Shown here one piece after another: positions 10,266-59,241 of a stretch of 64,000 nucleotides of DNA. A program made the translations under genes and the position numbers. Source of the DNA: Minisyncoccota bacterium (GTDB lineage Bacteria > Patescibacteriota > Minisyncoccia > Phycocordibacterales > SBAW01); the NCBI GenBank assembly GCA_035546615.1, contig DASZWM010000002.1, forward strand, positions 15,460-79,459, given 5' to 3'. Position 1 is the stretch's first letter, and the number at the start of each line of letters is the position of its first letter. The notes under the pieces are model-generated. The model was not told the DNA's origin and ran no database searches. It saw only the letters and a list, made by a program, of their open reading frames with translations.

Positions 10266-12749
10266 ATGGCTGACGACGAAACAAAGAAAGACCCCAAAGA
10301 CGGCCGCACTGACGGCGGCACCGGCATAGTCGGGCGCAACATCTCCACCGAGATGCGCGAGAGCTTCATCGACTACGCGATGTCGGTCATTACCGACCGC
10401 GCGCTTCCTGATGTGCGCGACGGATTGAAGCCCGTGCACCGCCGCATCCTCTACACCATGCATCGCCTGGGGCTCACGCCTTCGGCGCGCTTCCGCAAGT
10501 CGGCGCTCGTGGTGGGCGACGTGCTCGGCAAATACCATCCGCACGGCGACGCGTCCGTATACGACGCGATGGTAAAAATGGCGCAGGAGTTCTCCATGCG
10601 CTATCCGCTCGTGCTCGGCCAGGGCAACTTTGGTTCCGTGGACGGCGACTCGGCCGCCGCCATGCGCTACACCGAAGCGAAGATGTCCCGCATGGCGGAG
10701 CAGCTCCTCGGCGATATCGAAAAGGAAACTATCGACTGGCGCCCCAACTACGACGGCAGCCTCAAGGAGCCGGTGGTGCTTCCGGCCGCGGTGCCCAACA
10801 TTTTGCTTAACGGCACGCTCGGCATCGCTGTGGGTATGGCCACCTCTATCCCGCCGCACAACCTCACCGAGCTCTCAAACGCGCTCGTGCACCTTATTGA
10901 GAATCCCGAGGCGACGGTAGAGGACCTCATGCAGTTCGTCACCGGCCCCGACTTCCCAACAGGTGCGCTCGTATTTAATAAGAAGGACCTGCTCCACGCG
11001 TACACCACCGGCAAGGGCGGCGTGGTTACCCGCGGCGTTGCCGAAATTGTGGAGGGCAAGAAGGGCGACTATCAGATAGTCATTACCTCCATACCGTACC
11101 GCGTGAACAAGGCCGACATGATAATGCGCGTAGCCGACCTCGTGCACGAGAAGAAGCTCGAGGGCATCCGCGGCCTGCGCGACGAGTCCACCAAGGACAT
11201 CCGCATCGTAGTAGACCTGAAGCAGGGCGCGCATCCGCAGAAGGTGCTCAACTACCTCTACAAGCACACGGCGCTCGAGGACACGTTCCACTTCAACATG
11301 GTCGTGCTCGTGGACGGCGTGCCCCAGACCCTGTCGCTGAAGGGGATACTGCAGGAATTCATCAAGCACCGCCAGGACGTCGTGCGCCGCCGCACGCAGT
11401 ACGACCTTACGCAGGCGCAGGCCCGCGAGCATATATTGCTCGGCCTCAAGAAGGCGCTCGACCATATCGACGAGATAATCAAGCTCATCCGCGCATCCCG
11501 GGACGTGGCCGACGCACACGCAAACCTGATGAAGAAGTTCAAGTTCTCCGAACTGCAGGCGACCGCCATTCTTGAAATGCGCCTCCAGAAGCTCGCCAAC
11601 CTCGAGCGCAAGAAGATAGAGGACGAATTGAAAGAGGTTCAGGCCCTTATCGAAGAGCTCACGAGCCTGCTGAAGAGCGAAAAGAAGATGATGACGGTCA
11701 TCCGCGGCGAAATAGAGGACATCAACAAGAAATACGGCGACGAGCGCAACACCAAGGTGGTAAAGGGCGCGGCAGGCGTCATTAACGTCGAGGACCTCGT
11801 GCCCGACGAGGAGCAAGTGCTCGTGCTCACCCAGGGCGGCTATGTAAAGCGCACCAACCCCGACGAGTTCCGCAAGCAAAAGCGCGGCGGCGTGGGCGTC
11901 ATCGACCTCGATACCAAGGAGGAGGACTTCGTAACGAACTTCCTCACGACCTCGACGCACTCGGACCTGCTCTTTTTCACCAACGCGGGCAAGGCGTACC
12001 AGCTGAAGTTCTACGAGATCCCCGAAGGCAAGCGCTCCACCAAGGGCCGCCCTATTGTGAACTTCCTCTCCGTTACCCCCGAAGAGCGCGTTACCTCGGT
12101 GCTCCCTATGCGCAAGAACCAGAAGGAGGGCGAGAAATTCCTCTACATGATAACCAAGCAGGGCGTCGTGAAGAAATGCGACGCGACTGCCTTCCACGAT
12201 GTGCGCCGCTCCGGCCTCATCGCGCAGAAGCTCCAGAAGAACGACGAGCTCATCGCGGCACTCTTGGTGGAGAAGGGCGATGAAATATTCCTTTCGACCG
12301 CCAAGGGGCAGTCTATCCGCTTCAAGGAGTCCGACGTGCGCCCGATGGGCCGCGCGGCCGGAGGCGTGCGCGGCATGAAGCTCAGCGGCGGCGATACCAT
12401 CGTGGGTGCCGATGTGGTTAAGAAGGGAGTAAAGAACCAGGAAGTGCTCGTCATTTCACGCAACGGCTACGGCAAGACGACCGCGACCGAAGAATATAAG
12501 AACCAGAACCGCGGCGGCTCCGGCATCAAGACCATGAATATGACCCCCAAGACCGGCCCGCTTATCGCTGCGCGCATCATCACCAAGGAAGATGGCGTGG
12601 GTGAGGACGAGATCGTGGTCATATCTAAAAAAGGCCAGGTCATCCGCACCGAGCTTAAGGAGATCCCCAGCCTTTCCCGCAGCACGCAGGGCGTACGCGT
12701 TATGAAGCTCCGCGAAGGCGATGCGATAGCAAGCTTCGTTTGTCTATAG
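10266..12749 (+). CDS. gyrA: DNA gyrase subunit A
   Basis: [27 protein letters not shown] (active-site Tyr) and C-terminal beta-pinwheel repeats. Confidence 0.97.
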
Positions 12750-12752
12750 GAT

Positions 12753-13346
12753 ATGGATACTACCACTCAGGCGTATCTTGAAATTCTGGAGAAAACAAAT
12801 CAGCAATTAAGTCTTTGGTATAACCCATATGGTCTAATGGTGGCAGTATTGACTGGCCTAGTAGCGGCACTTGCAATTGTTTTTGCTTTTATTTTATGGA
12901 GACAGCAGAAAGAATATAAAGATGCTTTTAAAGATTTTCTCGCTGAACGTAAAAAGTTCGCCAATAGTGAGATAGCAAAGGCAATAGTAGAAGCCGGAAA
13001 AGTGCTTGACGATAAAATTATAGAAGCGGACAAACAACTCAAAGATATAAAAGACTCAAGTAGCAAAACAAAAAAAGACATTGAGAAGGAAATTCAAGAA
13101 CTCAAAAAGTCCAGAGAATCTTTGCAGTCAGGTAGTGCGATTTTTCGTAGTGGAGGTGTGAGCGGCCCAATATATGGCACCGCTGCGAGTTCTATTTTGG
13201 GAGTAGCTTCTGGCGCGAATAGTACAACCGTTTGGGATCCAACTTCTAGTGTATTTAGTGCTGTTGGTAAAATATGTGGTTTTTGTGGAACTCAGAATTA
13301 TCCTGGCGCACAATTCTGTTTCTCTTGTGGGAACCCCCTTGGATAA
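12753..13346 (+). CDS. membrane-anchored coiled-coil protein with C-terminal zinc ribbon
   Basis: TM helix MVAVLTGLVAALAIVFAFILW, a Lys/Glu-rich helix, and C-terminal CGFCGTQNYPGAQFCFSCGNPL. First gene of the AT-rich island. Confidence 0.6.
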   Translation: MDTTTQAYLEILEKTNQQLSLWYNPYGLMVAVLTGLVAALAIVFAFILWRQQKEYKDAFKDFLAERKKFANSEIAKAIVEAGKVLDDKIIEADKQLKDIKDSSSKTKKDIEKEIQELKKSRESLQSGSAIFRSGGVSGPIYGTAASSILGVASGANSTTVWDPTSSVFSAVGKICGFCGTQNYPGAQFCFSCGNPLG

Positions 13347-13383
13347 AAAGTTCTTGTCTTCCTAGAAAGAATCTAATCACTAT

Positions 13384-14358
13384 ATGAAAATAAAGATTGA
13401 AGAATTGCGGCAATTAATGGTTAAAATTCTTGCGGGCAAGTATTACTCGCAGGAGGAGGCAGAAAAGATTGCCGAAGTTTTTCTTTATGCTGAATTGTCC
13501 GGTAAAAATACACAAGGAGTTCTTAAACTTCTTGGTTCTGAGCCGGCTCAAAATATACAGCCCAAGTATCTTCCTAAGATTATAAAAGAGACAAAAGTAT
13601 CTGCGCTTGTAGACGGAGGCGGAGCGGCCGGACCTTTGGCAGCTCAATTTGCACTAGATAAGGCGATTTCATTGGCTAAAGAGACTGGAGTAGGAATTGT
13701 GGGTTTAAACAATACTTTTTCTAGCGTAGGAGTTATGGGATTTTATGCTCGCAAGATGGCCCAAGCAAATCTGATAAGTATTGTGAGTGCAAGTTCACCC
13801 AGAGCAATTGTTCCTGCGGGAGGTATTGAGCCAGCTTTTGGCACAAACCCCATAGCATTTGGTTTCCCTACAGAAGAATATCCAATCGTTTTTGATATGG
13901 CGTCTTCGGCTATCACTTGGTATGGGCTTGTTCGTGCAAAAGCCCTTGGTCAAAAGCTACCCGAAAATGTCGCGATTGATAAAGAAGGAAACATAACAAC
14001 TGATCCTGAGGCGGCAATGGCTGGAGCTATTTTACCTTTTGATCGCTCTTACAAAGGTTCTGGGCTGGCTATGGTCGTTGAACTCTTAGCGGGAGCTTTT
14101 ACAGGTGCATCGGTTGTATTTGACGAAGGTGACTGGGGAACTTCCTTTATTGCCTTTAGTCCCGATCTTGTTATTGGCACTGAGCAATTCAAGAAAAAGT
14201 CCTCAGAGCTGGTAAAGAAAGTAAAAGCAGGCAAAACCAAAGCAGGAGAGAGCATACATATCGCCGGTTATGACAGCGAGGCAAAGCTAAAAGAGATCAA
14301 TGATTCAGGAGAGATAGAGATTGAAGATAAAATTCTCGATCAACTAAAGACTTTGTAA
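13384..14358 (+). CDS. Ldh_2 family malate/L-lactate/sulfolactate-type dehydrogenase
   Basis: AEVFLYAELSGKNTQGV, GFPTEEYPIVFDMASS and SYKGSGLAMVVELLAG resemble the Ldh_2 family. Confidence 0.75.
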   Translation: MKIKIEELRQLMVKILAGKYYSQEEAEKIAEVFLYAELSGKNTQGVLKLLGSEPAQNIQPKYLPKIIKETKVSALVDGGGAAGPLAAQFALDKAISLAKETGVGIVGLNNTFSSVGVMGFYARKMAQANLISIVSASSPRAIVPAGGIEPAFGTNPIAFGFPTEEYPIVFDMASSAITWYGLVRAKALGQKLPENVAIDKEGNITTDPEAAMAGAILPFDRSYKGSGLAMVVELLAGAFTGASVVFDEGDWGTSFIAFSPDLVIGTEQFKKKSSELVKKVKAGKTKAGESIHIAGYDSEAKLKEINDSGEIEIEDKILDQLKTL

Positions 14359-14365
14359 TAAGAAT

Positions 14366-14905
14366 ATGAAATTTGGGAACTTGAAATTTGCGCCTGCCAT
14401 TGAACACCCAGAACTTTTGGCTGCTCCTGTTGCTAGTGCACTTACGAGTTTGTCCATCGCTGATGTTGGTGTCGCAGAAATCGACCCAGCTCTCTCCGAC
14501 ACCGCAGCATTTTGCGAGAAGTACGCCGTTGTGCCTGCCCAGGCTGCTAATTGTGTAGTGCTTAAGTACAAAAAAGGCGAAGAGTCGGCCTTTGTCGCAT
14601 GCGTGATTTTGGCAACCACTCGTGCTGATGTGAACGGCCTGGTGCGCAAGGTACTCGACATCAAAAAGATTTCTTTTGCGCCCATGGAGGAAGCCGTGGC
14701 AGGAAGCTCGATGGAATTTGGAGCAATAACTCCTATCGGTTTACCAGCTAATTGGCCAATTTTAATAGACAAAGCCGTTGTCGATTCTCCTGGGGTTATA
14801 ATCGGGAGCGGAATTCGCAAATCTAAATTAGGTTTACCGGGCAGAGTTCTTGCTTCACTGCCGAACATACAAATACTTGAAGGGCTAGGTCAGGTAAAGA
14901 CATAA
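14366..14905 (+). CDS. YbaK/EbsC-type aminoacyl-tRNA deacylase domain protein
   Basis: NCVVLKYKK..., FAPMEEAVAGSSMEFGAITPIGLP, IIGSG. Layout matches the YbaK/ProRS-editing family. Confidence 0.65.
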   Translation: MKFGNLKFAPAIEHPELLAAPVASALTSLSIADVGVAEIDPALSDTAAFCEKYAVVPAQAANCVVLKYKKGEESAFVACVILATTRADVNGLVRKVLDIKKISFAPMEEAVAGSSMEFGAITPIGLPANWPILIDKAVVDSPGVIIGSGIRKSKLGLPGRVLASLPNIQILEGLGQVKT

Positions 14906-14912
14906 TAAATAT

Positions 14913-15167
14913 ATGAGCAAAGGAGATACAGTACCGCCAGTTCCTTCGGACGCTCCTCAGGTAGGAGAGGTCTTTAAGCATTACAAAGGGGACCCATACC
15001 GCGTCGTAGCGCTCGCGCTCCATTCCAACGACGACGAGTGGATGGTGGTGTACGAGCCCATATACGAAAATCCGGCCGCGCCCATGTTTACCCGGCCGGT
15101 TCGGGAGTGGGGAGAGGAAGTAGAGTGGGAAGGCAAAAAAGTGAAGCGCTTTCAAAAAACAGCTTAA
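14913..15167 (+). CDS. DUF1653-like small protein
   Basis: FKHYKGDPYRVVALALHSNDDEWMVVYEPIY...MFTRPVREW matches the DUF1653 pattern. Confidence 0.6.
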   Translation: MSKGDTVPPVPSDAPQVGEVFKHYKGDPYRVVALALHSNDDEWMVVYEPIYENPAAPMFTRPVREWGEEVEWEGKKVKRFQKTA

Positions 15168-24159: not shown

Positions 24160-24184
24160 AAAATCCCGCTTGAGCGGGATTTTC
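24160..24184 (+). terminator. rho-independent terminator after tRNA-Lys
   Basis: AAAATCCCGC ttga GCGGGATTTT. Confidence 0.7.
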
Positions 24185-24278
24185 TGCGCTGTGCGGGGCG
24201 CAGCCATGTCCCGCACTGGCGGGACGGCGAGCCGGGGTCGCGAAACTATTTCGCGACGGCGAAATAGTATTTGTGACC
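24184..24278 (+). repeat. tRNA-linked structured element, copy D (short form, 3' of tRNA-Lys)
   Basis: CTGCGC tgtgcggg GCGCAG; CCCGC actg GCGGG; ACGGCGAGCCGGGGTCGCG; ACTATTTCGC gacg GCGAAATAGT; ATTTGTGACC. Shares the core, GACG-loop hairpin and tail with copy E. Confidence 0.55.
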
Positions 24279-24301
24279 ACAAAGTGCGAGACGCTTTTTT
24301 G

Positions 24302-24447
24302 AGGCCAGGAGAAATCGATCAGGCGTTCAAAAATTGTCGTCACAATTTTTGCCGCACGACCCTGCCTCGCTCCCAAGTCTGCTGACTTGGGGCCCGCTCC
24401 GGCTTGCGATTCCCGACGAGAAGCACCCCGTGCTTCTCTCCATGGCC
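24302..24447 (-). repeat. tRNA-linked structured element, copy A (long form, 3' of tRNA-Cys)
   Basis: Three perfect hairpins plus the conserved core GCCGGAGCGGG..GGGAGCGAGGCAGGGTCGTG shared with copies B and C. The arms derive from the tRNA-Cys 3' end. Confidence 0.8.
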
Positions 24448-24469
24448 GCTTGCGTCGAAGACTCCTTAG

Positions 24470-31919: not shown

Positions 31920-31953
31920 AAAAAGCTGGCAATAAGCCAGCAGTTTCTTTTTT
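31920..31953. terminator. hairpin flanked by A- and T-runs at the distal end of element B
   Basis: AAAAAGCTGGC aataa GCCAGC AGTTTCTTTTTT. Confidence 0.5.
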
Positions 31954-31954
31954 A

Positions 31955-32107
31955 GTGCGCCGGGGAGGAATCGGTCAGGAATAAAGTGTTCGCCGTCGCG
32001 AATACTTTTTCACGACCCTGCCTCGCTCCCGCATCTGGTGATGCGGGGCCCGCTCCGGCTTGCGAATCCTCACGCAAGGTATCCCATACCTTGCTCCCGC
32101 GCAGCAC
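31955..32107 (-). repeat. tRNA-linked structured element, copy B (long form, 3' of tRNA-Tyr)
   Basis: Same three-hairpin architecture and core as copies A and C. It ends with a 15-nt exact copy of the tRNA-Tyr 3' end (31955-31969 = 32152-32166). Confidence 0.8.
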
Positions 32108-32114
32108 ATAACGC

Positions 32115-32144
32115 AAAAAGTCCTAGCAAGAGCTAAGACTTTTT
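32115..32144. terminator. terminator between tRNA-Tyr and element B
   Basis: AAAAAGTCCTAG caagag CTAAGACTTTTT (7 of 8 bp), with an A-run and T-run on either side. Confidence 0.55.
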
Positions 32145-32152
32145 GACGTTTG

Positions 32153-34330: not shown

Positions 34331-34371
34331 CAAAAGACGCAAAATGCAACCTTCGTTGCTTTTTGTGCGTT

Positions 34372-34459
34372 GCGGGAGACGGAGCGATGCCGCGCAATGG
34401 CGCGGCCGCGAGTCGGGGTCGCGAAAATTTTTTGCGACGGCAAAAAGTTATTTGTGACC
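34372..34459 (+). repeat. tRNA-linked structured element, copy E (divergent short form, 3' of tRNA-Trp)
   Basis: GGAGCGATGCC; GCCGCGC aatg GCGCGGC; CGCGAGTCGGGGTCGCG; AAAATTTTTTGC gacg GCAAAAAGTT; ATTTGTGACC. Confidence 0.5.
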
Positions 34460-53211: not shown

Positions 53212-53246
53212 AAGGTCGTCGAGGAAGGTTCCCGGCGGCCTTTTGT
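53212..53246 (+). terminator. rho-independent terminator
   Basis: AAGGTCGTCG aggaaggttcc CGGCGGCCTT (two G-U pairs) followed by TTGTT. Confidence 0.5.
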
Positions 53247-53260
53247 TATATACTGGCTTC

Positions 53261-54319
53261 ATGGCAAAGGGCTCCAAGGAAGAAATCGCTGCGCCTATGG
53301 CGCTGTATCGCAAATACCGGCCTTCCGGCTTTGCGGAAGTGCGCGGGCAGGAAGAGGTCGTTTCGGTCCTTGAGGCCGCTATAAAGAAGAACGAAATCGC
53401 GCACGCCTACCTTTTCTCCGGCGGGCGCGGCACCGGCAAGACCTCGATGGCGCGCATTTTGGCCCGCGCGGTCGGGACCAGCGAGCAGGATATCTACGAG
53501 ATGGACGCCGCATCCAACCGCGGTATCGACGAGATACGCGAGCTTCGCGAAGGTGTCTCGACGATGCCGTTCGATTCCAAATACAAGTTCTATATCATCG
53601 ACGAGGCTCACGCGCTCACCAAAGACGCCTGGGGAGCGTTTCTCAAGACCCTTGAGGAGCCGCCGGCGCACGCGATATTCGTGCTTGCGACGACCGAGCT
53701 CGACCGCGTGCCCGAAACCATCCAGTCGCGCTGCCAGGTGTTCCGTTTCAAGAAGCCCAGCCACGAAACGCTTAAGAAGCTCGTCCTCGATGTAGCCAAG
53801 AAAGAAGGCGTCGCGCTTGCGCCCGCAGGTGCGGAGCTTGTCGCTTTGGTAGGGGAAGGCTCGTTCCGCGACACACTCGGCACGCTCCAGAAGGCGCTTA
53901 CGATTTCGGAAGACAAGAAACTGACGGAAGAGGAGATAGCGAAGGTAATTGGTGCGCCATCGGCCGGGCTGGTAAATAATTTTATCTCGGCGCTTGCCCA
54001 GAAAAATATAGACGACGCGCTTGCCGCCTTCTCGGCCGCGGTAAAAAACGGCTCGGAGCCGCAGATATTCATCTTGCTCGCCGTTGCGAAAGTGCGCGGG
54101 ATATTGCTCCTGCGCTTTGCCCCCAAAATGCGCGGAGAGCTTGCCGAGCAGTTCGGCGAGGACGATATGAAGCTGCTTGAGTCGCTCGCAAAGGGCGAGG
54201 GCGCAAGCATTAACTCCCAAACCCTGGCAGAATTCCTGACCGCGCTCATTGAAACTCCGCGCGCTCCGCTTCCGACTATTCCGCTGGAGCTTGCTCTGTA
54301 CCGCCTCTTCCAACAATAG
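53261..54319 (+). CDS. dnaX: DNA polymerase III subunit gamma/tau (short form)
   Basis: YRKYRPSGFAEVRGQE, GGRGTGKTS, IIDEAHALT, SRCQVFRF. Start placed at the ATG after the terminator. Confidence 0.9.
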   Translation: MAKGSKEEIAAPMALYRKYRPSGFAEVRGQEEVVSVLEAAIKKNEIAHAYLFSGGRGTGKTSMARILARAVGTSEQDIYEMDAASNRGIDEIRELREGVSTMPFDSKYKFYIIDEAHALTKDAWGAFLKTLEEPPAHAIFVLATTELDRVPETIQSRCQVFRFKKPSHETLKKLVLDVAKKEGVALAPAGAELVALVGEGSFRDTLGTLQKALTISEDKKLTEEEIAKVIGAPSAGLVNNFISALAQKNIDDALAAFSAAVKNGSEPQIFILLAVAKVRGILLLRFAPKMRGELAEQFGEDDMKLLESLAKGEGASINSQTLAEFLTALIETPRAPLPTIPLELALYRLFQQ

Positions 54320-54321
54320 AT

Positions 54322-54987
54322 ATGGAATTTATACAGTCATCGAATCCGAGCGAGGGCGCCCAGGCTATGGCGCAGAAGATAGTTGAATCTTTGCGGAAGG
54401 GAAAAGTGCTGTGGCTGATATGCGGCGGCTCGAACGTGCCGCTTTCGGCGGAGGCCATGGATGCCGTACGCGCCGCAGTTTCTGCGGATGAATTGCGGAA
54501 CCTAACGGTCGGCATGACGGATGAGCGGTACGGGCCGCTTGGGCACGCCGACTCCAACTGGAAGCAGCTTGAGGATGTTGGGTTCAATATAGAAGGAGTC
54601 ACGGCTATTCCGGTACTTACGGGAAAGCCGCTTGAAGAGACTGTTTCGGAATATGCTCAGAAGCTCGAAGATGCGCTGCAAGAAGAACCGCTTGTTATCG
54701 CGCAATTCGGCATCGGCGCGGACGGGCATATCGCGGGCATGCTTCCGCACAGCCCCGCGGTCTCAAGCACGGACACTATATACGCATACGAAGCCGCGCC
54801 ATTCACGCGCATTACAATAACCCAGCCGGTATTCAAGAAAATATCCGTCGCGTATGCGATAGTATTCGGCGAGTCCAAAAAAGCCGCCATCGACCGCCTC
54901 AAGAACGAGGACCTTCCGGTTGAGGAAATGCCCTGCCAGTTGCTTAAGCAAATCCCCGAAGCGTATTTTTATACCGACCAGCTTTAA
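54322..54987 (+). CDS. 6-phosphogluconolactonase / glucosamine-6-P isomerase family protein
   Basis: VLWLICGGSNVP, MTDERY, FGIGADGHIAGMLP. Confidence 0.8.
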   Translation: MEFIQSSNPSEGAQAMAQKIVESLRKGKVLWLICGGSNVPLSAEAMDAVRAAVSADELRNLTVGMTDERYGPLGHADSNWKQLEDVGFNIEGVTAIPVLTGKPLEETVSEYAQKLEDALQEEPLVIAQFGIGADGHIAGMLPHSPAVSSTDTIYAYEAAPFTRITITQPVFKKISVAYAIVFGESKKAAIDRLKNEDLPVEEMPCQLLKQIPEAYFYTDQL

Positions 54988-54992
54988 GAAAA

Positions 54993-55015
54993 ACATCCTT
55001 ACAAACTTGAGAATG
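54993..55015. repeat. left copy of the 23-bp inverted repeat bracketing the ArsR-family gene (also part of a terminator hairpin)
   Basis: ACATCCTTACAAACTTGAGAATG. Its first 9 nt pair with 55016-55024 (TAAGGATGT), flanked by AAA/TTTTT. Confidence 0.7.
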
Positions 55016-55026
55016 TAAGGATGTTT

Positions 55027-55311
55027 TTAGAGATTCTGGAAGGATTTTAGGAAGCGGACGAATATCTTACCGTAGGGCGAAAGCCGGTGCTCCACGAACT
55101 TGCCGCGATACTTTTTTGCGATAAGGCCGGCCACATAGAGCCGCCTGGTGTGCTCGCCGATGGTCTTCTCGTTCGCATTAAGGGTCGCCGCAATAGTATC
55201 GAGCGTAACGCCCTCGTGCCGGGCGATAAGAAGCAGTATCTCGATGCGGTAATGATTTGCCATGCCCTTGAGATGGCGTTCCATCTGCTTTGCCGTCTTC
55301 GTATTTTTCAT
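55027..55311 (-). CDS. ArsR/SmtB-family winged-helix transcriptional regulator
   Basis: LKGMANHYRIEILLLIARHEGVTLDTIAATLNANEKTIGEHTRRLYVAGLI. An alternative GTG start lies at 55332. Confidence 0.75.
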   Translation of the reverse strand: MKNTKTAKQMERHLKGMANHYRIEILLLIARHEGVTLDTIAATLNANEKTIGEHTRRLYVAGLIAKKYRGKFVEHRLSPYGKIFVRFLKSFQNL

Positions 55312-55337
55312 GCGGGAGAGTATACATGACACCCCAA

Positions 55338-55360
55338 CATTCTCAAGTTTGTAAGGATGT
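55338..55360. promoter_or_regulatory. right copy of the 23-bp inverted repeat, in the ArsR-family gene promoter region (candidate operator)
   Basis: CATTCTCAAGTTTGTAAGGATGT is the exact reverse complement of 54993-55015. Confidence 0.5.
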
Positions 55361-55431
55361 GTGGAAAGGGAAGAGGCGGGGCTGGAAGCGTTTTGTGAAG
55401 GAGCCTTAAATTTGCTATCCTCAGATTGTAT

Positions 55432-55502
55432 TGCCCGATCGTCTAATGGTAGGACAGAGGCCTTTGAAGCCTTTAATTGGGGTTCGAATCCCTGTCGGGC
55501 AG
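55432..55502 (+). tRNA. tRNA-Gln (anticodon TTG)
   Basis: TGCCCGA/TCGGGCA acceptor (U1-A72), anticodon loop CTTTGAA, T arm TGGGG TTCGAAT CCCTG. Confidence 0.9.
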
Positions 55503-55523
55503 CAAATGTAGCGAAGCGTAATT

Positions 55524-55664
55524 TGCGCCCGAAGGAAGCAATGGGATTGCTTCCGGCAGGGATTCGAAAGCCGGAGCGGGACCCGCATCAGCAGATGCGG
55601 GAGCGAGGCAGGGTCGTGCGGCTAAAGTTGCGACGGCAACTTTAGAACGCCTGACCGAATCCCT
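55524..55664 (+). repeat. tRNA-linked structured element, copy C (long form, 3' of tRNA-Gln)
   Basis: hp1 is GGAAGCAAT ggg ATTGCTTCC, hp2 is CCCGCATC agca GATGCGGG, hp3 is CTAAAGTTGC gacg GCAACTTTAG. The core is near-identical to copies A and B. CAGGGATTCGAA is the exact reverse complement of the tRNA-Gln T arm. Confidence 0.8.
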
Positions 55665-55726
55665 AAGAAGTTTCTAGTTTTCTCTGTCTCTAGGCAGAAT
55701 CACTTTTTGATGGTAAATCTGTCCTG

Positions 55727-57400
55727 ATGCCGTATTCGACTGATATGTCAGTGTATTTAGATTTGGGCGGCGCTTTAGCTGCTTTTGGCCTTTTATTTAC
55801 TGTTTACCAACTTCGGCGACCAAGGTGGGAGGTAATTTTGCGAATTAGAAATAATTGGCAAAGTGATATTTTCTGGATATTAGGTTTTATAGGTTTGTTT
55901 TATGCCCTAGTTGGCGTGCTTGTATCTGAACTCCCAATTAATTCTTTCAACTTTCCGTTTAATACCCCATTACTTTACGAGGTGGCAGCGTACCTATCGT
56001 TTGTAGCTTCACCTCTGTCATTAATATATTTTGCGACCAATGACAAAAAGTTATTTAACGCAAAAACTGCAGAAACTTTCTACGAAGTAATCTTGCAAGA
56101 AATTTCTAAATCTAGTGATGTAAACCTAGATGCGGCATTGGAAATAGTCTTGAGAAACTTTAATGAAATTTGTGATGCAACTCTTCAAAATACAGATAAA
56201 GATTTGCGCTCATACGCAAGGTCAATTTTAGACGTTGTACTAAGTGACGAGTCTGTAGTAAAAGTGCTCACTACCAAGAGGCTTGATGCTTTGCAATATA
56301 TCTTTTATTTAATAAAGGAAAAGAATATCACTCGTGCTCATTCGGGGATAGGTATACCGAGAATTGTAAATAATCTTTTCTTTGACGAAAATTCCTTCCT
56401 CTATAAACAACTCGATAGAAAAGGGTTGGCACTTTCATCAAATATATACACGAGCATTTTTGAATCTCCAGTTATACTCACCAACTTTGATCTGTTTGGG
56501 TACCCGACTATCGGTTATGGAATGAGTAGAGATACTGGCAATGCTGGTATAAGAGTATTTATCAAAGCCTTATCTCTAAGCATTGAAACTTACTTTAAAA
56601 CAGGGAGCGTGCCTCCGAGGCACATTAATAATGGGTTGTCTTACTTAAGCAATATATTTGGAGGGTTGTGTGCAAAAATTGCCATCAAAGAAAATAAAGG
56701 TGTTGATACTAAATCTAGTTTAGAAGATGAGTGGTGGGGCTTACATCAAATAGCCTCCTTTTTAGGACATGATTATATTTTTCTTGCCTATGAAGAAAAA
56801 CTAAATCAGCAAGTTCTGGAAAACGAAAAAACTGCCCATGAGGCTCGATTTGGCTCAAATGCAACTATAAATGAGGGTATTGCAGCTGTTATCTATAAAG
56901 CTTTTGAGCAGCTTTCACAAATTAAAAAAACCACAGACATATATCATACAGTTCTGGAGCTCTTGCATGGAATGATGAATGAGCCTACCTACAAGGAAGG
57001 TTATAGACCGCCTTTTGAAAAGAGACTCTGGCAACAAATCGGTGCAAATGTTGCTAAACGTTATTATCCTGCCGTCGTTAGAACGTATTTAACCTTTGTT
57101 GGGTTCTGTCTTGGCGCAGATGCAAACCAACGACAAGGTTGGATTGGCGAACAAGCGGAACGTATGAGACGACTTTTGTATATTGACCTTAAGCCTTTAT
57201 TTGATAAGAATGAAAAAATGATAAATAAGGAATTTATGAAAGACGTTTTGCTCCCAGATTCCATGTCCTATAAAGATGGTAAATTTACTTATACCTCTGG
57301 ATTCGGAGAAGGTACAACCACTGAAGTAGCACCACCCCCTGAGGGTGCGACATCAGGTTTGGAAGGAATAGATTTAGAGAGTATGCCTCACTTCGTCTAG
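55727..57400 (+). CDS. ORFan membrane protein (3 N-terminal TM helices plus a ~450-aa helical domain)
   Basis: 557-aa ORF in the AT-rich island. No motif recognised. Confidence 0.65.
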   Translation: MPYSTDMSVYLDLGGALAAFGLLFTVYQLRRPRWEVILRIRNNWQSDIFWILGFIGLFYALVGVLVSELPINSFNFPFNTPLLYEVAAYLSFVASPLSLIYFATNDKKLFNAKTAETFYEVILQEISKSSDVNLDAALEIVLRNFNEICDATLQNTDKDLRSYARSILDVVLSDESVVKVLTTKRLDALQYIFYLIKEKNITRAHSGIGIPRIVNNLFFDENSFLYKQLDRKGLALSSNIYTSIFESPVILTNFDLFGYPTIGYGMSRDTGNAGIRVFIKALSLSIETYFKTGSVPPRHINNGLSYLSNIFGGLCAKIAIKENKGVDTKSSLEDEWWGLHQIASFLGHDYIFLAYEEKLNQQVLENEKTAHEARFGSNATINEGIAAVIYKAFEQLSQIKKTTDIYHTVLELLHGMMNEPTYKEGYRPPFEKRLWQQIGANVAKRYYPAVVRTYLTFVGFCLGADANQRQGWIGEQAERMRRLLYIDLKPLFDKNEKMINKEFMKDVLLPDSMSYKDGKFTYTSGFGEGTTTEVAPPPEGATSGLEGIDLESMPHFV

Positions 57401-57402
57401 AT

Positions 57403-57960
57403 ATGAATCCAAACATTTGGTTTTACACTTTTAGTACAGCAGCCCAAGTAATGGCGGCTTTGGCCGGTTTATTTGCAGTATTTGTTGTATATAAGATTCA
57501 AGATTTTAGTCAGCTTATAAAAGACGCCCGCTCTAGTCTGTCCCGGTTGATTCCATACAATTCAGCGAATACGGGCGGAGATACAATCTCTAAGCAGGAA
57601 GTATTAGATATGACTGATAGAGAATTGGTTACTACGCTTGCCGAGTTGTTAGTACTTGAGACATCTCAGAATGGAGCGTTCTTTAGCGGACATTCAGAAA
57701 CTATAGATGGCACAACGATAGCTGTAAACTCGAATACCTACGACTATTTCGCAGCCCTTGTTGATAAAAAGGAAAGAATACTAAAACGTCTGATTTTTGT
57801 CTTGGGTTTAAGTTTAGGAACTATTTGTGTTTGTCTAGTATCATTGGTGCTAATTGACGTGTTATCAAAGTTTGAGTGGTTTATTTGGATGTGTTTGGCT
57901 TTATTTATATACACCCTTTGGACAATCGGAATGGATATTTACAAGATAACCCTAGAGTAA
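57403..57960 (+). CDS. ORFan membrane protein (1 N-terminal and 2 C-terminal TM helices)
   Basis: 185 aa, starting 3 nt after the previous stop. The N-terminal helix MAALAGLFAVFVVYKI resembles that of the 557-aa protein (LAAFGLLFTVYQL). Confidence 0.6.
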   Translation: MNPNIWFYTFSTAAQVMAALAGLFAVFVVYKIQDFSQLIKDARSSLSRLIPYNSANTGGDTISKQEVLDMTDRELVTTLAELLVLETSQNGAFFSGHSETIDGTTIAVNSNTYDYFAALVDKKERILKRLIFVLGLSLGTICVCLVSLVLIDVLSKFEWFIWMCLALFIYTLWTIGMDIYKITLE

Positions 57961-57969
57961 TCTTTCTCT

Positions 57970-58293
57970 ATGAAAGGAATAATTATCGAAAATAGTCTCA
58001 AAGACAAAAGTATTATCACCGAAGCTGAAATTATTCGAACTTGGGAAGATGGAAGTTGGAAGTTGCGGGAGGTAAAAGTTTCAACAGAATGGGCTGAAAA
58101 ATTTGGAGGATACTTAAATGATGGACCCTGGTATGTTCACTTTTGGGAATCCGACAGCGACGATGTACTAGTAGTATTTAAAGACAAAAGCTTCTGGATC
58201 AAACATTCGGACAAGAATACTTGGCAAGATGCTATTGCTCATGGAAAGTCGTTACATATACCCGTGGAGCAATTAGACTTTCCTATTGATTGA
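57970..58293 (+). CDS. small soluble ORFan protein
   Basis: 107 aa, Trp/Asp-rich, same operon-like spacing. Confidence 0.5.
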   Translation: MKGIIIENSLKDKSIITEAEIIRTWEDGSWKLREVKVSTEWAEKFGGYLNDGPWYVHFWESDSDDVLVVFKDKSFWIKHSDKNTWQDAIAHGKSLHIPVEQLDFPID

Positions 58294-58331
58294 GATTTCG
58301 ATTTCTCCCTTTTATATTATATAATCAAGAT

Positions 58332-58715
58332 ATGAAGTATTTGCTAATCACGGCTTTATTTTTGGTTGTCTTTGTGTTTGCTACTCCAGCAAAGGCCGCA
58401 CCATTAACCCAATCCCAAGTAAATGCAATAATTACTATTATGCAGTCTTTCGGTGTAGATAGTGCTACGATTTTAAATATCAAAACAACACTCTCTAATT
58501 CGACTTCCGCTAAGGTAGAATCCGTCGTCAAAACTACTTTTAAAGGAGTTCCTACCTACGCACAAGTGAAAAGAGAGTTAGCAAAATCACGCAATAAGGA
58601 GGTGACTTATATGGAGAATGGATGTGTATACTCAATAAACCATTTAGTGAGTGAACATATTTTCAAAACACGCGATATGAGTATTCGCGATCTTGCATCT
58701 GGAGCAAGTTGTTAG
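58332..58715 (+). CDS. secreted ORFan protein
   Basis: Signal peptide MKYLLITALFLVVFVFATPAKA/AP. Start is the internal ATG of ORF 58290..58715. Confidence 0.5.
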   Translation: MKYLLITALFLVVFVFATPAKAAPLTQSQVNAIITIMQSFGVDSATILNIKTTLSNSTSAKVESVVKTTFKGVPTYAQVKRELAKSRNKEVTYMENGCVYSINHLVSEHIFKTRDMSIRDLASGASC

Positions 58716-58758
58716 TGCTCCTTGGTGTATAAAGTTTAAAAATATAGTTAATCTTCTC

Positions 58759-59241
58759 TTACCCCCGTCGCGCCGCATCAATAGCGGCAACGTCGAGCTT
58801 TTTCATCGTCATCATCGCGTCAAACGCGCGTTTTGCCTCATCGCCGCCCTTGGCAAGTGCTTCGGTCAGCGTGCGCGGCGTTATTTGCCACGATACTCCC
58901 CAGCGGTCCTTGCACCAGCCGCACTCGCTCTCCTGGCCGCCGTTTCCGACGATGGCATTCCAGTAGCGGTCCGTCTCTTCCTGATCGTCCGTCGCTATCT
59001 GGAAGGAAAACGCCTCGCTTTGCTTGAAATACGAGCCGCCGTTAATGCCCATGCAAGGAATCCCGCAGACCGTGAACTCTACCGAGAGCACGTCGCCTTT
59101 CTTGCCCGACGGGAAATCGGCAGGCGCATGGAAGACGCCCGTTACCTTGCTGTCGGGGAACGTAGCGGCATAGAAATTCGCCGCCCCTTCCGCATCCTTA
59201 TCAAACCAGAGGCAAATAGTGTTTTTTGGTATCATATACAT
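58759..59241 (-). CDS. VOC/glyoxalase-fold protein (PhnB / 3-demethylubiquinone methyltransferase-like domain)
   Basis: ICLWFDKDAEGAANFYAATFPDS..., FSFQIATDDQEETDRYWNAI, CGWCKDRWGVSWQI. Confidence 0.75.
   Translation of the reverse strand: MYMIPKNTICLWFDKDAEGAANFYAATFPDSKVTGVFHAPADFPSGKKGDVLSVEFTVCGIPCMGINGGSYFKQSEAFSFQIATDDQEETDRYWNAIVGNGGQESECGWCKDRWGVSWQITPRTLTEALAKGGDEAKRAFDAMMTMKKLDVAAIDAARRG

Follow-up and report, generated by a model that had tools for sequence, protein, structure and literature searches.

A low-GC islet at a tRNA-Gln-derived site in a Candidatus Paceibacterota genome and the uncharacterised membrane protein family that it carries

Tycheposon-type islands of Prochlorococcus integrate at the 3' ends of tRNA genes, are associated with partial tRNA copies and may stand in tandem at one tRNA; their cargo includes defence genes, degenerate remnants without an intact integrase are found among them, and a minority use large serine recombinases (bioRxiv 10.1101/2020.12.28.424599). 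Horizontally acquired islands with complete type I restriction-modification (R-M) systems have also been described in the class Paceibacteria (mSystems 2025, PMC12455944). Here, we describe an islet of ~3.1 kb located between positions 55665 and 58760 of a 64,000-nt stretch (hereafter the window) of contig DASZWM010000002.1, the source of which is a Candidatus Paceibacterota metagenome-assembled genome (MAG). The islet consists of foreign DNA, lies at a tRNA-derived site between exactly defined junctions and carries four co-directional genes, P1 to P4. The first of these encodes a conserved membrane protein whose homologs are found among large serine recombinase and R-M genes, mostly in the candidate phyla radiation (CPR, Patescibacteria).

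Like tycheposon-type islands, the islet has a split tRNA-like sequence at both junctions, and loci with related genes (designated by L numbers) include tandem arrangements (L012, L010) and remnants (L006, L010). Unlike tycheposons, which mostly use tyrosine recombinases, it belongs to a CPR phylum and the recombinases of its relatives are all large serine recombinases. Moreover, a replication module occurs in L003 only, and the copy in the window lacks a recombinase and is placed in a pseudo-tRNA tail. There is no sequence relationship to tycheposons, and membership in that group is not claimed. The likeness to the R-M islands of Paceibacteria concerns the relatives L005, L012 and L019, whereas the islet itself is devoid of R-M genes. 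In the report on those islands, the terms 'recombinase', 'tRNA' and 'integrase' have 0 occurrences and no P1-like family is mentioned; the association of the P1 family with mobile R-M islands appears to be undescribed in the literature searched.

Composition and junctions of the islet

A 300-nt GC (guanine plus cytosine) profile gave a value of 0.53 at 55400-55699, 0.35–0.40 from 55700 onwards and again 0.55–0.60 past ~58700, i.e. flanks of ~0.53–0.60 enclose a region of 0.34–0.41 between 55665 and ~58760. Taken as a whole, 55665-58758 has a GC of 0.375 versus 0.581 in the rest of the window (z = -5.8 relative to other 3.1-kb windows), and its tetranucleotide distance is 0.70, compared with a maximum of 0.42 for any other 3.1-kb window. 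The four open reading frames (ORFs; locus tags VHD55_00715 to 00730) are separated by 2–40 nt. Each of them has a GC of 0.378–0.380, and their GC at third codon positions (GC3) is 0.32–0.37 versus 0.57–0.74 in the flanking genes. The uniform GC and GC3 of the four genes, together with the outlier composition, point to a single block that came from a donor of ~37% GC and has not been ameliorated. An initial annotation, made from the letters and a list of ORFs, had placed a collapse of GC at 55665, noted four tightly spaced co-directional ORFs and regarded the region as foreign DNA beside a tRNA; the GC profile, the tetranucleotide comparison that it had proposed, the ORF list and the split tRNA-like sequence described below all agree with this.

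The locus is anchored by a tRNA-Gln(UUG) gene at 55432..55503 (+) (ARAGORN; Rfam RF00005, 60.7 bits). It is immediately followed by copy C (55504..55664, +) of a GC-rich, structured element with the closing helix GGGATTCG...CGAATCCC, and the decrease in GC begins right after the end of this copy, GAATCCCT (55657-64), just as the initial annotation had stated. Two further copies are present in the window, next to tRNA-Cys (copy A, 24296-24468, -) and tRNA-Tyr (copy B, ~31953-32150, -), as revealed by repeat search and alignment. The alignment also confirmed that copies A and B run on into, and terminate in, a copy of the T-arm and acceptor 3' strand of their own tRNA (the end of copy B is GATTCCTCCCCGGCGCAC and that of tRNA-Tyr is GAATCCTCCCCGGCGCAC). 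Copy C had been described as truncated at the island, which is correct, and its missing tail was located at the opposite, right edge of the islet (58761-58777).

The left junction (55659..55664, +) is formed by ATCCCT, which together with its right counterpart makes up an imperfect direct repeat of 6 bp, and the island starts at 55665. At the right junction (58761..58777, +) the other repeat copy, ACCCCC, is followed by GTCGCGCCGCA, the displaced acceptor-3'-like tail of copy C, so that the overall geometry is GAATCCCT / island / ACCCCC-GTCGCGCCGCA and the tRNA-Gln-3'-like tail of copy C is split. The 17-mer of the tRNA-Gln 3' end (ATCCCTGTCGGGCAGCA), searched for with up to 4 mismatches on both strands (2 x 64 kb), had two matches in the window: the tRNA itself and 58761-58777 (ACCCCCGTCGCGCCGCA), the latter in the same orientation and at the point where GC recovers. 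When the flanks were joined in silico, the sequence ...CCGAATCCCTGTCGCGCCGCA... was obtained, 17 of 19 positions of which are identical to the tRNA-Gln 3' end, and the empty-site junction expected from this reconstruction is ...CCTGACCGAATCCC(T/C)GTCGCGCCGCATC....

The target was the tRNA-like tail of copy C and not the tRNA gene itself. The right-hand tail overlaps the last codons of a VOC/PhnB-like gene of the host flank (58759..59241, -; PF06983, Pfam E = 3.4e-48; GC3 0.70 and host-like GC), the present stop codon of which falls at the island junction; in the reconstructed empty site this gene would encode a product of 165 aa, versus 160 aa at present. Exact repeats of at least 8 nt shared by the two island ends were not found. 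A split target of this kind is the signature of what is probably a site-specific integration at a tRNA-type att site. Taken together, 55665-58760 is very probably a genuine and recently acquired genomic islet, with atypical composition for the host and a split tRNA 3'-end target with a short direct repeat at both ends.

The structured element itself is ~160 nt long, and its three copies lie immediately 3' of tRNA-Cys, tRNA-Tyr and tRNA-Gln; copy C is 82–95% identical to the other two. The consensus fold of the three copies contains 47 pairs, with compensatory changes at 19, and no Rfam family matches it. The repeat may represent a miniature element that became integrated, or else a tRNA-associated RNA that has not yet been described. 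A second GC-rich repeat family with internal hairpins (99 nt, 78% identity; 24180-24278 and 34361-34459) was observed just downstream of tRNA-Lys and tRNA-Trp. Upstream of tRNA-Gln, a 32-nt inverted repeat (91% complementary; 54993-55024/55329-55360) brackets a MarR/ArsR-like gene (55027-55332, -); its first arm (54993-55024) is a hairpin in itself, and the repeat may be an operator, a terminator or a mobile/invertible unit. Inside the island, a consensus scan identified a terminator-like hairpin with a T-run upstream of P1 (55683..55707, +), a match that does not by itself imply a function. Elsewhere in the window, a second and milder low-GC patch is located at 12001-15000 (GC 0.45–0.49 versus ~0.58).

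P1 and the other proteins of the islet

P1 (55727..57400, +) starts 62 nt past the tRNA-like junction and encodes 557 aa (551 aa in the NCBI annotation, VHD55_00715). It represents a conserved, uncharacterised family of membrane proteins. A word-indexed search retrieved 167 homologs, all of them full length and 48–65% identical, while an exhaustive search yielded 155 clusters at 50% identity, comprising proteins of ~550–600 aa with the same architecture, down to ~21–23% identity. Among 24 diverse members the mean column identity is 55%, and the invariant motifs include RMRRLLYIDLKP and GYRxPFEKRxWEQI. The AlphaFold2 (AF2) model (mean predicted local distance difference test, pLDDT, 87.5; predicted template modelling score, pTM, 0.84) and hydropathy agree on transmembrane (TM) helices at residues 13-28, 43-68 and 81-104. 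These are followed by an all-alpha solenoid that extends to ~493 and then by a small beta element, in line with the three N-terminal TM helices and the large helical domain recognised by the initial annotation. The loop after the first TM helix is Arg-rich, which by the positive-inside rule suggests an N-out, C-in topology with a predicted cytoplasmic solenoid.

The 185-aa P2 (57403..57960, +) belongs to an independent family of proteins with 1+2 TM segments, an arrangement already proposed and supported by hydropathy, and with the invariant N-terminal motif IWFYTFSTAAQVMAAL.GLFAVFVVYKIQ. There are 25 homologs, in the alignment of which the N-terminal TM motif is almost invariant, and they occur in other contexts without P1. 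A resemblance between the first helices of P1 and P2 had also been suggested, but it is without statistical support (hhalign probability 0.4%), and homology of the two proteins was rejected.

P3 (107 aa; 57970..58293, +) is a stand-alone copy of a promiscuous domain of ~105 aa, for which 28 matches (48–66% identity) were found, either stand-alone or in fusions with NYN (nuclease), ASCH, DUF2806, PQ-loop/SWEET and cupin modules as well as with secreted TM plus coiled-coil N-termini. Its model (pLDDT 92) shows a ferredoxin-like beta-alpha-beta fold, which fits the soluble protein that had been predicted. The motif GPWYxHFW...STW...GIPEEQLDFPI is shared by P3 and proteins P0297-P0323, and no Pfam model exists for it.

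P4 (127 aa from ATG, 58332..58715, +; 141 aa from TTG at 58290) has a signal-peptide-like N-terminus in its translation, as would be expected of the secreted protein it had been taken for. Its exact sequence forms a singleton cluster. For the homology search, P3 and P4 were concatenated into a single query; all but the weakest match fell on the P3 half, and no convincing P4 homolog was retrieved at E <= 0.01; protein P0324 (136 aa, E = 7e-5) was considered as a P4 homolog and rejected, since it aligned with P3. The signal-peptide-like N-terminus and the length of the ORF in AT-rich DNA argue that P4 is a real gene. P4 alone is thus an orphan, and the initial description of all four genes as ORFans does not apply to P1, P2 and P3, with their 167, 25 and 28 homologs or matches, respectively.

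None of the four proteins has a significant match in Pfam, NCBIfam or PHROGs, and none contains a recognisable catalytic domain. The family profiles of P1, P2 and P3 retrieved nothing from the PDB, the P1 structure had no match in BFVD, and an exact-sequence look-up of the annotated 551-aa P1 returned no record.

Genomic surroundings of P1 homologs

Among 185,579 species genomes, P1 homologs were found at 13 loci, distributed over Nomurabacteria, Kaiserbacteria, Saccharibacteria, Paceibacterota, Magasanikiibacteriota and two Eremiobacterota. At 21 of 25 loci the flanks are richer in GC than the P1 homolog. A recurrent layout was recognised, in which a tRNA gene is followed by a co-oriented P1 homolog, then by a convergent large serine recombinase of ~440 aa (Resolvase, Recombinase and Zn_ribbon domains), and then by an R-M system. 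Behind the recombinase, a type I system (HsdM, HsdS, HsdR) is present at tRNA-Arg in L001/L005, a ResIII helicase with an N6_N4 methyltransferase (MTase) at tRNA-Gln in L008, a D12 MTase with an HNH protein at tRNA-Gln in L011, and a type I system at tRNA-Ser in L012, while in L014 (tRNA-Ser) the contig ends past the recombinase. The serine recombinases of these loci are orthologs (52–84% identity), and in L005, L008, L011, L012 and L014 the stop codon of the P1 homolog abuts or overlaps that of the convergent recombinase.

In L019, a P2 homolog directly follows tRNA-Gln and precedes an orthologous recombinase and HsdM; a single slot therefore appears to be taken by either P1 or P2. In L008, L011 and L019 alike, the site is tRNA-Gln. 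In both the window (53243-55503) and L008 (7811-9730), a dnaX gene (46% identity) is located 0.7–1.1 kb upstream of tRNA-Gln. Elements that carry P1 have entered the same conserved tRNA-Gln locus in separate CPR lineages.

Other arrangements were also found. In L025 the order is tRNA-Asn, recombinase, HTH (helix-turn-helix), MTase, GmrSD/SLFN, HinfI, MTase and P1 homolog, and in L026 and L032 a type III R-M system is followed by the P1 homolog as the final gene. In L003/L004 (1407-17619), it resides inside a ~16-kb element that is placed between two tRNA-Ser genes and encodes a 569-aa serine recombinase and PrimPol/AAA_25 proteins; one of these tRNA-Ser genes, which overlaps the end of the recombinase gene, has an unusual anticodon, ACT. 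C-terminal recombinase fragments (~312-440) abut intact P1 homologs in L006 (11656-12060, -) and L010 (11645-11980, -), so that decay of the recombinase with retention of P1 is recurrent. In L010 a complete recombinase is additionally present 2.8 kb upstream, and the elements there may be arranged in tandem.

Copies of tRNA 3' ends of the attR type were identified in L012 alone, where a partial tRNA-Ser copy lies upstream of the P1 homolog (~75 nt before its ORF start and ~140 nt before the aligned region), and L009 has a second tRNA-Thr; no such copies were detected in the 10-kb flanks of L005, L008, L011 and L019.

The surroundings of P1 homologs were also compared as a whole, with 293 ORFs at a distance of up to 3.5 kb as the near set and 146 ORFs at 6 kb or more as the far set. 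The leading Pfam families of the near set were Resolvase/Recombinase (10), N6_N4_Mtase (11), ResIII (8), EcoRI_methylase (5), HNH (5), GmrSD_N (4) and D12 MTase (3). It contained at least 21 DNA MTases and several type II restriction endonucleases (REases), whereas housekeeping families predominated in the far set. R-M, GmrSD, HNH and recombinase genes accounted for ~55 of the 293 near and 7 of the 146 far ORFs (Fisher p = 3e-5), and PADLOC MTase and REase models match neighbours of P1 homologs. A serine recombinase and/or an R-M system lies within 5 kb in 12 of 18 well-flanked loci, as judged with a small tblastn query set. The density of tRNA genes is 11-fold higher upstream than downstream of P1 homologs (0.109 versus 0.010 per kb), and 13 of the 15 upstream tRNAs are co-oriented.

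P1, and only P1 among the four proteins, is thus enriched near defence genes and qualifies as a candidate by association. As in defence islands, its homologs are found among type I, II and III R-M, GmrSD-type and HNH genes, but unlike known defence genes P1 to P4 have neither a PADLOC match nor a recognisable effector domain, and a defence role of P1 is putative. The initial annotation had considered the region as a typical context of accessory modules such as defence: the company of R-M, GmrSD-type and serine recombinase genes is in favour of this, whereas the PADLOC comparison that it had recommended assigned no family to P1–P4 at E <= 1 (5,027 models, PADLOC-DB v2).

Several further observations were made in these loci. 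Among 147 neighbouring ORFs, 7 had a match to the PADLOC model 'mad2' of the MADS system (best E = 4e-57); these 7 may be serine recombinases or methyltransferases. Truncated, pseudogene-like P1 fragments occur on long contigs in L017 (10001-10291) and in L079/L082/L084 (P1 residues 4-206), one of them in an Eremiobacterota genome. The genes directly before the P1 homolog of L005 encode a 272-aa protein (L001/L005, 9149-9844) and a DUF6602 protein, and a 49%-identical copy of the former is encoded 1.6 kb upstream of the P1 homolog in L006 (7683-8456); the 272-aa protein may be a further recurrent partner of P1.

Origin of the islet and possible role of P1

The islet shares with L008, L011, L012, L014 and L019 a gene of the P1 or P2 family placed right after a co-oriented tRNA or tRNA copy. 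The convergent ~440-aa serine recombinase and the R-M system of the layout are missing, and P2 to P4 take their position. No integrase or recombinase gene lies inside the island: tblastn with six queries found no serine recombinase or remnant in the window with a score better than E = 0.08, and P1–P4 have no Pfam hits. The initial annotation had reported neither integrase nor transposase, and for the recombinase this holds. Its absence becomes understandable in the light of the relatives, which carry a large serine recombinase or, in some cases, just its remnant. From the P1/P2 cargo, the tRNA-Gln-type target and the decay series seen in other loci, we infer that the islet is a recombinase-less descendant of such an element.

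The parent family would consist of CPR/Patescibacteria islands in which a large serine recombinase of ~440 aa targets tRNA 3' ends and R-M systems are carried as cargo. The islet would have been integrated site-specifically at a secondary tRNA-Gln-type site, the tail of the small structured element, and could be either an internal-deletion remnant or a cassette moved in trans. In intact relatives, P1 occupies the gap that separates the tRNA (attL side) from the convergent recombinase gene, or else closes an R-M operon, and it might act at the cytoplasmic membrane as stand-alone protective cargo that excludes incoming DNA or aborts phage infection, alongside the R-M systems but not as part of them. 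P1 seems to be independent of a particular R-M type, because types I, II and III all occur.

To this explanation as a whole (the islet, the element family and the cargo role of P1) we assign a probability of roughly 0.6. Several results weigh against it. The direct repeat is just 6 bp long and imperfect, the empty site is an in-silico reconstruction, and the inner ends of the island show no similarity to those of the relatives. The island contains no recombinase, remnant or R-M gene, and its link to the element family consists of P1/P2 homology and a tRNA-Gln-type site, and not of a shared att or recombinase sequence. Six of the 18 well-flanked P1 loci are without recombinase or R-M genes, albeit with a limited query set. 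The fold of P1 is similar to generic alpha-solenoids only, so that no biochemical activity can be proposed, and PADLOC, as stated above, provides no family. Matches to P1 were likewise absent from phage records, plasmid records and IMG/VR contigs, and a phage or plasmid origin is therefore not supported.

According to the initial annotation, P1–P4 would be a membrane-centred multi-gene cassette, i.e. one co-functioning system (abortive infection or host interaction) acquired as a unit. Co-directional ORFs with 2–40 nt between them, three membrane or secreted proteins out of four and the identical GC of 0.378–0.380, which fits transfer as a single block, would be compatible with this. Nevertheless, when P2, P3 and P4 were searched by tblastn on 99 loci, including 91 with P1 homologs (68 non-redundant), no homolog of any of them was found beside P1 in the 68 non-redundant loci, and hence the co-occurrence of the 557-aa and 185-aa proteins, which had been proposed as a check, was not observed. 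Moreover, P2 homologs exist elsewhere without P1, the P3 domain has many unrelated modules as fusion partners, and an 89%-identical relative of P2 is followed by genes for 165 and 143 aa and not for 107 and 127 aa. A P1-P2-P3-P4 operon conserved in other genomes was not found; the four genes are a cargo mosaic and not one system, and a joint function is improbable. Slightly better, although still unlikely, is the proposal that P1 (or P2) serves the mobile element itself, where it could assist the neighbouring serine recombinase in directionality, in regulation or in transfer/uptake. The fixed convergent position of P1 homologs in L005, L008, L011, L012 and L014, the corresponding placement of the P2 homolog in L019 and the retention of P1 homologs beside recombinase remnants all speak for such a service. 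On the other hand, many P1 homologs follow R-M operons (L026, L032, L048, L054) that have no recombinase within reach, the P1 gene of the window is intact without any recombinase, and P1 and P2 are unrelated. To our knowledge, the recombination directionality factors described so far also bear no likeness to an integral membrane protein that has a 450-aa solenoid.

Two other explanations question the mobility or the reality of the island. P1 might be an ordinary envelope or housekeeping protein, specific to lineages of CPR bacteria, with an AT-richness due to its own composition or to local mutation bias; it is indeed strongly conserved (mean column identity 55%), mostly in Patescibacteria, and has housekeeping neighbours in L007, L009, L042 and L070. 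Its presence at just 13 loci in 185,579 species genomes is hard to reconcile with such a role, as are the GC3 of all four genes (including that of the soluble P3), which is about half that of the host, the flanks that rebuild a split tRNA-like sequence, and the enrichment of recombinase and R-M genes beside homologs, and we consider this explanation very unlikely. An assembly or binning artefact, in which a low-GC fragment of another organism was joined into the contig, could be imagined for a MAG with so abrupt a change in composition. However, host-type sequence is back after 3.1 kb and the flanks, when put together, restore an uninterrupted tRNA-Gln-like motif and its 6-bp repeat; because they reconstitute a single motif, a chimeric join was rejected as barely conceivable.

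The preferred reading, a recombinase-less islet with P1 as cargo, leaves a protective function of P1 as a guess by association, to which we give somewhat less than even odds. Prophage superinfection-exclusion proteins (e.g. lactococcal Sie2009) are membrane-anchored, encoded at the integrase-proximal end and expressed from the resident element. They may serve as an analogy for P1, but Sie2009-type proteins are much smaller and share no sequence or fold similarity with it, and the elements considered here are not phages; a block of DNA entry by P1 is hypothetical. The more specific idea, that the P1 family constitutes a new single-gene, membrane-anchored defence or DNA-entry-exclusion system is more tentative still, and we rate it as possible rather than likely. 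Such a system would be formed by proteins of ~550–600 aa with 3–4 TM helices and a solenoid, would be largely specific to CPR/Patescibacteria and would be spread by tRNA-targeting serine-recombinase islands with R-M systems, with P2 as an alternative occupant of the slot.

CPR/Patescibacteria have tiny genomes with few recognised defence systems beyond R-M, and the movement of accessory genes among them is poorly described. The islet is an ordinary kind of mobile island, and P1 is one promising uncharacterised family. Together with its relatives, the locus outlines a family of mobile elements that target tRNAs, use a large serine recombinase, carry R-M systems as cargo and have a slot of variable content next to the tRNA; the most faithful passenger of these elements is P1, an abundant, strongly conserved and unannotated membrane protein family. 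If P1 is not protective, the locus would still be a clean, nucleotide-resolved case of island decay at a tRNA-derived site. If it is, a CPR-specific immune or exclusion gene would be added, and with it a way to approach DNA entry in organisms that rely on taking up DNA.

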